Below are positions 282 to 47,562 of a stretch of DNA of 64,000 nt, piece by piece. The stretch is from a virus (taxonomy: Duplodnaviria > Heunggongvirae > Uroviricota > Caudoviricetes), in the IMG/VR virus record IMGVR_UViG_2939521961_000011, one strand, 5' to 3'. The notes below the pieces were generated by a model, which saw only the letters and a program-made list of their open reading frames with translations, was not told where the DNA came from and searched no databases. Within the stretch, counting starts at the first letter, position 1. Every line of letters starts with the position of its first letter. A program made the translations under genes and the position numbers.

Positions 282-306
282 AAAAAAACCCGCGCATCGG
301 CGGGTT
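282..306 (-). terminator. tR'-like terminator of the late leader transcript (prophage A)
   Basis: GC stem cccgc/gcggg followed by a T7 run on the minus strand, about 60 nt downstream of a promoter-like element. Confidence 0.5.
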
Positions 307-352
307 CTTAAATCTTATCAACGGTAGACATACAAAGCCCATCATTGGGAAA

Positions 353-381
353 ATCTTATCCATATTTTTTGAAAAATGCAA
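353..381 (-). promoter_or_regulatory. Candidate late promoter pR' immediately downstream of Q (prophage A)
   Basis: Minus strand reads TTGCAT, 17-bp spacer, TAAGAT; position matches lambdoid pR' between Q and tR'. Confidence 0.35.
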
Positions 382-412
382 GCATCATGTCGTCATCTTC
401 GGCGAAAACCAT

Positions 413-1165
413 TTATCTTGTCACCTTTCTCAATTGTATCTCTGCATATGCTTCTTCCTGCCAGCACTTTGTAACCAGTTTATCAATGACATCTGCATAT
501 CCTTTGTACCACTGATAATCCGTCAGGTCTGGTACCAGCTTCTGGACATGAAGCCGCGCCAGTGTGGTTGGTAAACTGCTAAACCGGTTTCCATTGCAAC
601 GCCCACAAACCTTATAAACAGGCGTGCCATGAAGCCGGGTTCTTTTTTCATCCAGGACAATACCTTTACCCTTGCACCCTCTGCATGCTGTGCTGACTTC
701 TCCCTTACCATGACAATGCTGACATAGTTCCTTCACCCACTCTTCCTTAATAACAGATTCCCCGCTTCTGGAGTGTTTCACCACCTCGCGCAATACATTA
801 TGAAATCCAGTACCAGCACAATGCTCACAGCGAGCCTTACTTGCCGCAGACCTGGAATAATCAGCAAAGGCAAAATTCACAAGGTAAGGAATGATCTGTA
901 GCCGGGTTTCTTCACTCAATTTATTCAATGTCGGGTTATCCAGTGCCATCGCGTAATTGAGCAGACCTTCAATCGCAAACTGAGGATCCTGAACACCAAC
1001 TTTTGCCAGGAATAAAGCAAACCCAAGCGGTGCTTTTGACTGCACCATCCCCTGCGCAGCCATCACATCCGTAATTGTTAAACCACCAGAGCCTGTCGCC
1101 GGTGCGTCATCGCTCAGTTTTGGAGATTTCGGGGAGTAATATTTCGGTAAGGCTTCAAGGTTCAT
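413..1165 (-). CDS. Q: Late-gene antitermination protein Q (zinc-finger type)
   Basis: N-terminus LPKYYSPKSP shared with the second Q at 46741..47562; CxxC-GxG zinc-finger repeats; sits upstream of pR'/tR'. Start taken at the internal ATG with a GGAG RBS. Confidence 0.8.
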   Translation of the reverse strand: MNLEALPKYYSPKSPKLSDDAPATGSGGLTITDVMAAQGMVQSKAPLGFALFLAKVGVQDPQFAIEGLLNYAMALDNPTLNKLSEETRLQIIPYLVNFAFADYSRSAASKARCEHCAGTGFHNVLREVVKHSRSGESVIKEEWVKELCQHCHGKGEVSTACRGCKGKGIVLDEKRTRLHGTPVYKVCGRCNGNRFSSLPTTLARLHVQKLVPDLTDYQWYKGYADVIDKLVTKCWQEEAYAEIQLRKVTR

Positions 1166-43719: not shown

Positions 43720-45570
43720 TTATGCTGCCGGTGCATTTATCTCCAGCATCAGACTTTCTATCTCAACGCCATACGCTGCATTTTTTGTAACATCCGTCAG
43801 CGTCAGCGCATTCAGTCCCAGTGTCAGACTGTCTTTTATAACCTGGAATGCCGGGCCAGCCACTCCATTCAGTTTCGGAGTAACCGTGGCACTGCCGGCG
43901 GTGAACACCAGCTCCAGCGTCTGCCAGTCGTTACCGTAATCGCCGAACTCCCCCAGCTTCGTGTTTCCGGCTTTCCTGTGATGCATCAGATTCACTCTGC
44001 CGTCAGTGGTCTGAGTGAAGTACGACATCAGGAACGGATTACCGGTACCCGTCATCGCCACACCATCAGGAACGGGAGCATCTGTATACAGATAAATCCC
44101 CAGCCCGAACTGATTGTTGGTCAGTGCGCCTGACAGGCGGAACTTACAGGTCAGTCTGCCGCCCTGTGTCAGCAGGGTAATTGCGTCATCCACCGGATGC
44201 GTCAGGGACCAGGTTTTATTGCTCTGCTTGGTGATCTTAAATACACCATCTGACAACTGAATTCCGCCATCCTTAATGCTCCAGCCCTGCGCAGCAGCCT
44301 CTCCGGCTGCCGGCAGCAGGGAGATTGTGCGAACGGACGTATCTGCAGACGGACCCGATGGCGTGTTGCCGCCGGGCGAGGGTTTGATTTCCGGTGCCTT
44401 ACCACTGATGAAGGCGGAGGTGCGCCCGGCTGCGTTCAGAATAGCGGTTGCCAGACGATCCGGAATAATGCTCCTGCGCGCCCATGAACTGAAATGTGTC
44501 GGGCGGTTTGATGATACCTGGTTTCCATTCGTTCTCGATGCCGCACCGTAATATCCTGATGCCGGAATATCCGGATCTTCTGCCGGCGCGTTAGTGGCGG
44601 TATTGACACCGTTACCGTCTGTCATGAAGGGCACAAAATAAACGCCCTCACTCTCCCTGTTTTTATACCCGCCGTACACGGTGTCGTACTGGGTAGCGTA
44701 TGTATTTTTCCAGTAATACGTCGTGTCACCACAAATCCACGGCACATCTGCAGCACTGCCACCATGGCACTGCGCGTTAAACACGGAGAGGTCAGCACGA
44801 AACTGTGTCAGCATGGCTGTAAACAGCGCAGGTTGCTGTGCGTGGGTGGCGGCGCTCATGTCAAACTCTCCCTGCATCCAGCACACCGCCAGCAACACAT
44901 TTTTCGGGTTCTTCTGTAATGCAGCTTTAGTGCGCGCAATCAGGTCCTGATATAACGGTTTACCCACACCCCAGCGTGCCGAATCCTGGCTGGCCCCCGT
45001 GTCCGCACTGAATGTCCCCTCCGCGCCCTGGGTGAATGCCGAACCACCACGACAGCATGGTACCAGCAGGATCCCCGCGTTATTCGGGATATACGGGAGC
45101 AGTTTTTTGGCAATATGTAACCCCTGGCCGACACAGCCGTACTGCCCTTTGCTCAGGTCTGCCTTCGGATGATTCAGCGTACTCATATCCTGCACATCAT
45201 GCAGGCAGTGGTCGGCCGGAATAATATCGTTATATCTGCAGGCAGCCCCACCCGGCGTCACTGTACTGCGGCGCGCCAGCTGTTTAATGCGCGGATCCGG
45301 AGCATCGTATGAATCCGGCAGCGGAAGCCCTTCACCGTAAGCCATGGCATTGGACTGCCCGGCCAGTACGATGACGTAGTACCACTCCGGCTCAGTTGCA
45401 CCACTGACCACCACATCACCTTCTGCTGTAATCGCCTGCATCAGGGTATAAGGGGTTATGGCCACCGGACTCCCAAACGGCTGCCAGCCCTCTTTCAGTT
45501 TGTGTGTCAGCTTTTCCGCAAGGTCTGACGGCGACGCCGCCCTGACAACATCATAATGTTTAAATGTCAT
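43720..45570 (-). CDS. Prophage sialate O-acetylesterase-like protein (NanS-p-like)
   Basis: 616 aa with DUF1737-like N-terminus and SGNH/SASA-type GQSN motif (VIVLAGQSNAMAYGEG); Q-downstream position as in Stx-type phages. Confidence 0.7.
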   Translation of the reverse strand: MTFKHYDVVRAASPSDLAEKLTHKLKEGWQPFGSPVAITPYTLMQAITAEGDVVVSGATEPEWYYVIVLAGQSNAMAYGEGLPLPDSYDAPDPRIKQLARRSTVTPGGAACRYNDIIPADHCLHDVQDMSTLNHPKADLSKGQYGCVGQGLHIAKKLLPYIPNNAGILLVPCCRGGSAFTQGAEGTFSADTGASQDSARWGVGKPLYQDLIARTKAALQKNPKNVLLAVCWMQGEFDMSAATHAQQPALFTAMLTQFRADLSVFNAQCHGGSAADVPWICGDTTYYWKNTYATQYDTVYGGYKNRESEGVYFVPFMTDGNGVNTATNAPAEDPDIPASGYYGAASRTNGNQVSSNRPTHFSSWARRSIIPDRLATAILNAAGRTSAFISGKAPEIKPSPGGNTPSGPSADTSVRTISLLPAAGEAAAQGWSIKDGGIQLSDGVFKITKQSNKTWSLTHPVDDAITLLTQGGRLTCKFRLSGALTNNQFGLGIYLYTDAPVPDGVAMTGTGNPFLMSYFTQTTDGRVNLMHHRKAGNTKLGEFGDYGNDWQTLELVFTAGSATVTPKLNGVAGPAFQVIKDSLTLGLNALTLTDVTKNAAYGVEIESLMLEINAPAA

Positions 45571-45784
45571 TATTCCTCCCGGCCGGGATAGTGTATTAAA
45601 TCAGATATGGAGTGGGCTGTAGTCCGGAAGCCTGAATGACACACGGGGACTACAGCCCAAGAAATGAAAAAAGGCCACGCAGTTGCGCAGCCTGATAAAC
45701 CCTGGTTAAAATCCACACGATAACAACACAACAATATCAGTATCTCATGCTATTGCCCGAACCCATTCGGGCATTTTTTACCCA

Positions 45785-45816
45785 TAAAAAAGCCCCTCCG
45801 GAGAGGGGCATGTTTG
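45785..45816. terminator. Bidirectional rho-independent terminator
   Basis: gcccctc cgga gaggggc hairpin flanked by an A-run and a T-rich stretch. Confidence 0.4.
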
Positions 45817-46140
45817 CATGCACATTCTTTTTCTTGCATGGTGCCGGGTGCCTCCCGGTGAATTCAGTATCAGCACCTGAATCCGCGATTATCACATATA
45901 CCTGGTTGCTGATTGCCCCTCCGCACAGGGGGATTCACCATGCAGTAGTATTTTTAATAAACAGTAAACAAAAAAATCAAGCATTATGCAGGCTGTTTCT
46001 TTTTATCACCGGCCACAGCAATACCACAATGCCGCAGACCAGCACCCCATCCGCCAGCACCGACATGATTCTGCTGGTGAAATCCACCATCACCACCAGA
46101 AACAGCAGGAGTGCAGCCACAGCCAGGCGCAGTTTTACCG

Positions 46141-46533
46141 TCACTGGTGATTCTCCAGACGAAGACCCAGAACACCGGCAATCTCTTCCAGCACCTTGCG
46201 CTCTTCCGGCTCAATTTCGCCGTCTGCCTCCGCAATGGCCACCGCCACATCCAGCACATCTTCCGCTTCACGCGTATCGTGTTTCACATCCTCGATCTCA
46301 CGTAACGCCGCACGACGACCAATTTTAAAGTTCGTATCCAGCTGACCGATAATGGTTGCGCTAATCGCATTAATTTCTGACGTAAACGCGGACAGCGCAG
46401 GCTGATTACGCAGTACCTGTTCGATCTTCGCTTTCTAGGAAGCCTCACATTCACCATCTGCACAGGCCACCAGGTAGGCAGCATTAATAACCGCCTGTGC
46501 CAGATCGCGTTTCTCAAACTTTCCTTTTTCCGG
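46141..46533 (-). pseudogene. TerB-like reading frame interrupted by in-frame TAA and TAG stops
   Basis: Translation: PEKGKFEKRDLAQAVINAAYLVACADGECEAS*KAKIEQVL...AIAEADGEIEPEEREVLEEIAGVLGLRLENHQ with a TerB-like AxADGxIxxEE motif pair; no start codon after the upstream TAA. Confidence 0.35.
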
Positions 46534-46635
46534 TTAACGTGACACACCAATAACTCTTGTCGAAAAAGCCAGCAAGCTGAAAGACCGGTATTCACAACCA
46601 CCAGCGCGTTTACTGTACTGGCGTGATTTCAGTCA

Positions 46636-46661
46636 TAAAAAAACCCGCCTGGCGACGGGTG
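46636..46661 (-). terminator. tR'-like terminator downstream of prophage B Q
   Basis: Hairpin acccgcc/ggcgacgggt followed by a T-run on the minus strand, about 80 nt downstream of the Q stop. Confidence 0.4.
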
Positions 46662-46740
46662 TAAAAAATCTTCTAACGTCAGGCATAAAACGCCCATCGT
46701 TAGGGCAAATTTACCACAGATTCGGGAAAAATCAACAAAG

Positions 46741-47562
46741 CTATCTGGTCACCTTTTTCAGTTGTTGTTCTGCCCATGCTTCTTCAATATCAAACTGCAC
46801 CACCAGCGTATCGTAAAAACGTTTAACTGTTTTTTTCCATGTATCAAGAGATATGGCATCGGTTACATTACATATGGCATTAAATGCCTCCGTTGAAGGT
46901 AATCTTTCATAGCCACGACCACCACAACGCTGGCAGTCTCTGATAACAGGCATACCACGTTTTACCGACTCTTCACGATGAATGGCAACACCGCGCCCAC
47001 GACAATCTTTACAGGCGGTGGAAACCTCCCCCTTCCCTCCACACTCCGGACAGGCAACTTTTACCACCTCCCTGACTTTTTTCCATTCCTCCCAGTAAGA
47101 CGGATACACGCCTTTTGTGCACTTTGCCCACACTGGCGGCTTACCATCCGGATACTGGATCTTGTTTGTAAAAACCTCGCTTTCAATAAATTTTTTTCCG
47201 TGACAACAGGGGCACTGTTTTTTGCTCGCCGCGCTACGGGCATAATCTTCAAACGCATACGAAGCCATAATACGCATCACTGCCGGTTTTATTTCTGCCG
47301 GGAGTTTTCTTAACGCCGCCACGCGATCACACCGACTGAGTGCATATTCTGTCAGCAATTCTGTTGCCCGCTCTCTGTCATTCATACTAATGCCCATTTT
47401 CCCAAGGAACGCAGAAAACCCCATCTCAGCCCAATTCTGTGTCATGCCCTGCGCGGCCATCACATCAGTGATACTCAGCGTATCTTTCGACGTTGAGGCC
47501 GATGCATCAGTCAGGCCGGGGGATTTTGGGGAGTAGTATTTCGGTAAATCTTCCAGTTTCAT
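46741..47562 (-). CDS. Q: Late-gene antitermination protein Q (zinc-finger type)
   Basis: 273 aa; shares the LPKYYSPKSP N-terminus and CxxC zinc-finger repeats with the prophage A Q. Confidence 0.8.
   Translation of the reverse strand: MKLEDLPKYYSPKSPGLTDASASTSKDTLSITDVMAAQGMTQNWAEMGFSAFLGKMGISMNDRERATELLTEYALSRCDRVAALRKLPAEIKPAVMRIMASYAFEDYARSAASKKQCPCCHGKKFIESEVFTNKIQYPDGKPPVWAKCTKGVYPSYWEEWKKVREVVKVACPECGGKGEVSTACKDCRGRGVAIHREESVKRGMPVIRDCQRCGGRGYERLPSTEAFNAICNVTDAISLDTWKKTVKRFYDTLVVQFDIEEAWAEQQLKKVTR

Follow-up and report, generated by a model that had tools for sequence, protein, structure and literature searches.

The window analysed in this study is a 64,000-nucleotide stretch of the viral record IMGVR_UViG_2939521961_000011, and all positions below refer to it unless another sequence is named. 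The region of interest lies on the minus strand, 3' of an antiterminator Q gene of the QuuQ type (46741..47562, 273 aa), which was taken from the ORF list and from the PGAP/GenBank annotation of identical or near-identical copies. A putative late promoter, TTGATT-16 nt-TGgTAAATT with an extended -10 element (46708..46735, minus strand), was read from the sequence and scores below the scan threshold; we take it to be PR' from its position and its resemblance to lambda PR'. The intrinsic terminator that follows (46636..46660, minus strand) consists of a stem (ACCCGTCGCCAGGCGGGT) and a T-run. It was called as strong by the terminator scan (46660..46643), and its position 3' of Q suggests that it is tR'. 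The next stretch (46523..46635, minus strand) is the leader between tR' and a 65-codon ORF (orf65) that has been lost from the window. This leader runs into a deletion junction (46520..46529, minus strand), beyond which lies a pseudogene remnant of tciA, comprising codons ~18/19 to 143 and the TGA (46141..46522, minus strand). The remnant was delimited by the Pfam TerB match, the alignment of intact homologues, the BLAST boundary and the PGAP pseudogene call. tciA is a TerB-family accessory gene whose name was first given in phage P1.

The remnant is followed by an intact tciB (45977..46144, minus strand), which encodes a small hydrophobic protein of 55 aa with a DUF3927 domain (Pfam DUF3927, E=4.3e-17; PHROG 1470 'TciB-like', E=4e-30). 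The GTG start of tciB overlaps the TGA of tciA (GTGA), and a GGAG is located 8 nt upstream of the GTG; tciB is probably still expressed from this ribosome-binding site of its own. The next late-operon gene in the ORF list encodes a nanS-p-type SASA-family carbohydrate esterase (43720..45570, minus strand), and PGAP annotates a SASA family carbohydrate esterase of the same size (1,851 nt) at the same position in E. coli E2865. The spacer between tciB and nanS-p contains an Rfam match to STnc100 on the late-operon strand, beginning just after the tciB stop (45780..45969, minus strand; 147.8 bits, gathering score 47). Abutting it in convergent orientation on the opposite strand is a match to AgvB, a prophage anti-GcvB sRNA (45718..45779, plus strand; 96.5 bits, gathering score 56). 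An AsxR match overlapping AgvB was below the Rfam threshold.

Translation of 46141-46602 on the minus strand reads GGCEYRSFSLLAFSTRVIGVSR, stop, PEKGKFEKRDLAQAVINAAYLVACADGECEAS, stop, KAKIEQVLRNQPALSAFTSEINAISATIIGQLDTNFKIGRRAALREIEDVKHDTREAEDVLDVAVAIAEADGEIEPEERKVLEEIAGVLGLRLENHQ, stop, where the stops are a TAA (46536..46534), a TAG (46437..46435) and the terminal TGA (46143..46141). Around the stops, the frame runs ...GVSR, stop, PEKGKFEKRDLAQAVINAAYLVACADGECEAS, stop, KAKIEQVL...AIAEADGEIEPEERKVLEEIAGVLGLRLENHQ, stop. The first-pass annotation had described a TerB-like frame here that was marked by two motifs and interrupted by in-frame TAG and TAA codons. The frame, both stops and both motifs are present; however, the TAA and the TAG had been placed at about 46531 and 46434, a few bases from their actual positions, and the second motif is EERKVLEE, one residue of which had been misread (EEREVLEE). 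The same annotation had noted that no start codon follows the TAA. The 32-codon interval between TAA and TAG indeed contains neither ATG nor TTG, and its sole start-like codon is a GTG at 46470, 11 codons 5' of the TAG. The stretch from TAG to TGA, which had been counted as a clean ORF of 98 codons, is open but comprises 97 sense codons without an ATG. Its first GTG, at 46287, opens a 48-aa ORF in the ORF list. Because the remnant has no start codon, no full-length product is possible.

The similarity of this frame to TerB is far beyond chance. With the TAG masked as X, the frame matched Pfam PF05099 (TerB) with E=1.7e-11 and 44.8 bits, above the cut-off of 24.4, over profile positions 2-109 of 118 and across the TAG. 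The profile search thus bears out the TerB-like assignment that had been made from the sequence alone. The intact homologue matched PHROG 632 ('tellurite resistance') from end to end (E=1.7e-69) and the Klebsiella TerB structure 2JXU over residues 14-137 on 20-144 (E=4.4e-8); compared with P1 TciA along its whole length, it shows 42-51% identity. Full-length relatives were found in 130 records of phages, both temperate and virulent, and TciA relatives are encoded in 551 IMG/VR stretches. The NCBIfam search returned just weak partial matches to DjlA and YmfL. Membership in anti-phage defence was considered and rejected, since the PADLOC match was below threshold (E=0.0035) with no domain passing. 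The window remnant derives from the TciA family and is not an intact member of it. It has the profile score and the 2JXU similarity of a PF05099 protein, but it is not an uninterrupted translatable coding sequence (no start, TAG at codon 46). Likewise, the TciA/TciB module of the P1 tciA-tciB type (PHROG 632 and PHROG 1470) is represented by the adjacent, overlapping tciB, but not by a TciA of ~143 aa.

The 811-nt segment 45950-46760 was compared with complete E. coli genomes and phages by megablast, in which 2,457 E. coli genomes gave a match to at least some part of it. Intact copies of 143 aa were found in phage Evi, phage JLK-2012 (annotated tciA) and E. coli CUVET21-H2, and they occupy the same late-operon slot in all three. 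These copies share the frame of the remnant and have GAG (Glu46) at the site where the window has TAG (46435..46437, minus strand). In the first ADGxxxxxE motif, Glu46 takes the final position. The intact translation is MFGIFKKKTRRAAAEIKKFEKRDLAQAVINAAYLVAYADGECEASEKAKIEQVL...ENHL, and its N-terminus, MFGIFKKK..., is missing in the window, where nothing is kept upstream of KFEKRD. Codons 19-143 of the remnant are near-identical to the Evi and JLK-2012 proteins. Apart from the nonsense codon, the window has two polymorphic substitutions relative to the intact homologues, Y37C and L143Q, and the second motif, ADGEIEPEE, is unchanged in all sampled copies. Window and Evi differ at ~20 positions, almost all of them synonymous, which gives the look of a gene that was under purifying selection until recently.

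A tciA variant with a different N-terminus, (C)LVFLVKKARRAAT, and no ATG is present in strain CAU16175 (L004, 2454..2882) and in IMG/VR loci such as L178. In CAU16175, the PGAP pseudogene begins with the Leu codon of this N-terminus, and this choice, rather than a reading of the codon itself, suggests a non-ATG (TTG-type) start. About 31 copies of the variant carry the TAG and about 13 have an intact Glu46; a few MFGIF-type copies also carry the TAG. Since the TAG is found on both N-terminal types, either recombination has moved it between them or it has originated repeatedly.

The TAA has a different origin from the TAG. Homology to tciA begins at ~46522 in the BLAST comparison, that is, 3' of the TAA. 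Window 46795..46520, which covers the 3' end of Q, PR', tR' and the orf65 leader, corresponds to positions 300..575 of the CUVET21-H2 locus (L005), and window 46522..46100 corresponds to L005 2501..2923. The two segments overlap by 3 nt (46522..46520), and L005 576..2500 is unmatched. Within these ~1,925 bp lie orf65, the gene of a DNA methyltransferase, a set of three tRNA genes and the initial 50 nt of tciA. ARAGORN found no tRNA gene in the window. The deletion placed tciA codon 18/19 (AAG TTT GAG) directly behind the A-rich ribosome-binding region of orf65 (CCGGAAAAAGGAAAG). The break lies in A-rich microhomology: one parent reads CGGAAAAGGGAAAAAG followed by ACATG and the other CGGAAATTAAAAAG followed by TTTGAG, and the window reads CGGAAAAAGGAAAG followed by TTTGAG. 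In the window, the junction falls 2 nt short of a plain fusion of the two compared parents; the true parents may have been others, or the A-run may have slipped later. MAFFT misplaced the large gap in the alignment of the window with Evi, and the junction was set by direct parental comparison and BLAST.

The TAA (46534..46536, minus strand) sits within the sequence GTTAACC of the orf65 leader, outside the tciA homology, and loci L005, L007 and L008, whose leaders are undeleted, carry the same GTTAACC. Because it lies in a foreign leader upstream of the junction, the TAA is not a decayed tciA codon, and the initial reading of it as an in-frame lesion of the gene has to be given up. The lesions of the gene are one nonsense codon and a 5' truncation with loss of the ATG, not two internal stops, and the TAA should not be counted among them. 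The deletion has also brought the ribosome-binding site of orf65 (AAGGAAAG) to within a few bases 5' of an in-frame TTG of a 105-codon ORF (46284..46601, minus strand) that overlaps the tciA remnant in the +1 frame. A spurious peptide could initiate at the TTG of this junk frame.

The 241-nt block from the end of Q to the junction, of which the leader is a part, is 99.6% identical to the Stx2a phage Stx2_EH1910. In that phage a 198-nt ORF (65 codons) begins with an ATG located 6 nt beyond the end of the match. The gene order in Stx2_EH1910, Q-PR'-tR'-orf65-methylase-three tRNAs-stx2AB, is the same as in the window lineage up to the cargo. The cargo is tciAB in the window lineage, whereas it is stx in Stx2_EH1910, and the orf65-methylase-tRNA segment is deleted in the window. 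CUVET21-H2 has the same order as Stx2_EH1910, with tciA-tciB-nanS-p replacing stx. The proposal of a decaying accessory gene (moron) between tR' and nanS-p was right in substance, and its identification of the slot as the one where Stx phages carry stx agrees with the position of stx2AB behind the nearly identical block of Stx2_EH1910. The deletion and the intact tciB had escaped the first-pass annotation.

Both lesions are widespread. The junction was found in 477 of 5,426 complete E. coli genomes (~9%) when a 90-nt query spanning it had to be covered to at least 80%. O157:H7 and O26:H11 strains are among the carriers, which come from different serotypes and laboratories. The 811-nt sequence is 100% identical in the independent complete genomes of E2865 and strain 10159. 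A degenerate pattern with TAG at codon 46 recovered the nonsense allele in 89 IMG/VR contigs, and the same pattern with GAR gave at least 120 IMG/VR matches. After identical regions had been removed, the TAG was present in all 34 of the distinct junction-bearing IMG/VR copies, and the junction was in none of the GAR copies among the matches listed. Two GAR copies that a simple N-terminus classifier had put with the truncated set start with DVCIFGKK... and are full length. A further 17 distinct IMG/VR copies have the TAG in a full-length frame, as does the tciA of strain CAU16175, which lies beside tRNA genes. Because all junction copies carry the TAG and the TAG also occurs on full-length copies, the nonsense mutation was probably first. 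The most economical history, judged from this distribution of alleles, is that nonsense preceded deletion and that the deletion probably struck an already dead copy.

Codon variants private to the TAG copies were 6 non-synonymous to 3 synonymous with the nonsense codon itself left out, compared with 35:134 in intact copies (Fisher p=0.005); these nine variants come from related, non-independent copies. TAG copies are thus enriched for amino-acid changes, which indicates relaxed constraint, and the direction of this shift argues against readthrough or retained function. A parallel decay of tciB was examined and rejected, as the share of IMG/VR copies with a full-length tciB, 35 of 51 with the TAG and 71 of 88 with intact tciA, did not differ significantly (p=0.15). 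In both E2865, whose copy is identical, and O157:H7, PGAP gives the gene the label 'tellurite resistance TerB family protein, pseudo, internal stop'. The feature is therefore already known as an annotated pseudogene in public genomes, and it is an ordinary one.

The identical copy in E2865 lies in a prophage next to yebY (L295). Its tape-measure and replication ATPase genes are frameshifted, an ISEc22 element (IS66-family) is located between the tail-tip gene J and a lom-type gene, and nleG7 is present. These features suggest that the E2865 prophage is defective overall, which may not hold for the prophage of the window, since the two are not colinear without gaps. Colinearity of the window with E2865 over 50 kb was rejected when an ungapped single-offset comparison failed; there were 121 mismatches across the surrounding 6.8 kb. 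The E2865 annotation was accordingly applied just to the genes immediately around the locus. In E. coli A7 (L296, 2448..2561), a 37-nt piece that is 97% identical to tciA codons 18-30 lies beside fucP and an IS200 tnpA, inside a fragment that PGAP calls a partial 'DUF3927 domain-containing protein'. Pieces of the A7 type occur at a non-prophage chromosomal site in several strains, and the A7 piece is probably an old prophage scar. The A7 remnant and the ST131 locus (L008) were set aside as unrelated or different remnants.

Taken together, the region is very probably a non-functional tciA pseudogene in the late operon of a lambdoid E. coli prophage, passively transcribed with the late genes and not translated in the TerB frame; no observation spoke against the pseudogene reading. 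In its intact form, the 143-aa TerB-domain tciA is carried together with tciB, 3' of Q, PR', tR' and a tRNA cluster. Two events inactivated the gene, probably in the following order. A G-to-T change turned the GAG of Glu46 into TAG. A deletion of ~1.9 kb via the short A-rich microhomology joined the orf65 leader to tciA codon 18/19, taking with it orf65, the DNA methyltransferase gene and the three tRNA genes; tciA itself lost its ribosome-binding site, its ATG and about 17 codons at its 5' end. Late transcripts made under Q antitermination probably still include the remnant.

We consider it very unlikely that the 3' half is retained for a C-terminal 48-aa peptide with the TerB motif, or in cis for the expression of tciB and the STnc100/AgvB sRNA locus. 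The more specific idea, that translation still yields the C-terminal part of the TerB domain as a small protein, e.g. the 48 aa from the GTG at 46287, and that this half domain has kept a role, for instance in binding metal or in pairing with TciB, is somewhat less likely still. The frame is open for 97 codons past the TAG, the motif ADGEIEPEE is constant across the sampled copies, and the 48-position profile phrog_3920 matches TciA residues 96-143 (window 46141..46287, minus strand) with E=7e-36, a span that coincides with the GTG ORF of the pseudogene copies. However, this profile probably represents a family of gene calls on tciA pseudogenes and not a real protein, and 97 open codons are expected without selection in a recent pseudogene. 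The only candidate ribosome-binding sequence before the GTG is a GAGG two bases away, which is poor spacing. In addition, half of a helical-bundle domain would be unlikely to fold, and the variants private to TAG copies lean toward non-synonymous changes.

Readthrough of the TAG, by a suppressor tRNA or in a programmed manner, would give a near full-length TerB protein. In its favour, the TAG is common (89 IMG/VR contigs) and also occurs on copies of 142-143 codons, but readthrough is highly improbable. The ATG is deleted in the window, the TAA lies 32 codons before the TAG, and the window is without a tRNA gene. ARAGORN calls the tRNAs beside full-length TAG copies Met(CAT), Lys and Arg, PGAP annotates them as Ile and Arg, and none has a suppressor anticodon. 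More widely, no suppressor anticodon was found in the tRNAs beside related copies (Met(CAT), Lys, Arg, Asn and Gly by ARAGORN; Ile, Arg, Asn, Thr and Gly in the records), and the relaxed constraint on TAG copies is a further argument against readthrough. An intact gene into which faulty sequencing or assembly has introduced the stops can be dismissed almost entirely, given the 811 nt shared without a mismatch by E2865 and 10159, the junction together with the TAG region in 477 complete genomes and the TAG in 89 contigs.

The locus shows in textbook fashion how prophage cargo decays step by step: a nonsense mutation probably came before a deletion at microhomology, by which a methyltransferase gene and the phage tRNA cluster were lost as well. 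The junction sequence is a handy marker of one prophage lineage that is present in ~9% of complete E. coli genomes.

The name TciA itself was derived from similarity to TerB, i.e. from homology (PMC10695390; PMC9603915). In phage P1, tciA, tciB and tciC were non-essential in a CRISPRi screen (PMC10695390), and the tci operon is often missing from P1-like elements, so that its presence is variable (PMC9603915). In the literature on tciA, tciB and DUF3927, we found no functional study. TerB of the terZABCDE operon (Klebsiella, PDB 2JXU; PF05099) has the same domain, and two acidic motifs of the ADGxxxxxE type are found in both. In contrast to terB in its operon, the window gene is a phage gene that stands on its own, with a DUF3927 membrane peptide as its partner. 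terZ, terA, terC, terD and terE are absent beside the remnant, whose neighbours are Q, tciB and the nanS-p esterase, and by its neighbour genes the locus does not belong to a ter operon. P1 TciA (tciABC operon) and the lambdoid orthologues in JLK-2012 and Evi are of the same family and length class and have the same tciB partner. The window copy differs from them in that its ATG and first ~17 codons are gone and codon 46 is TAG.
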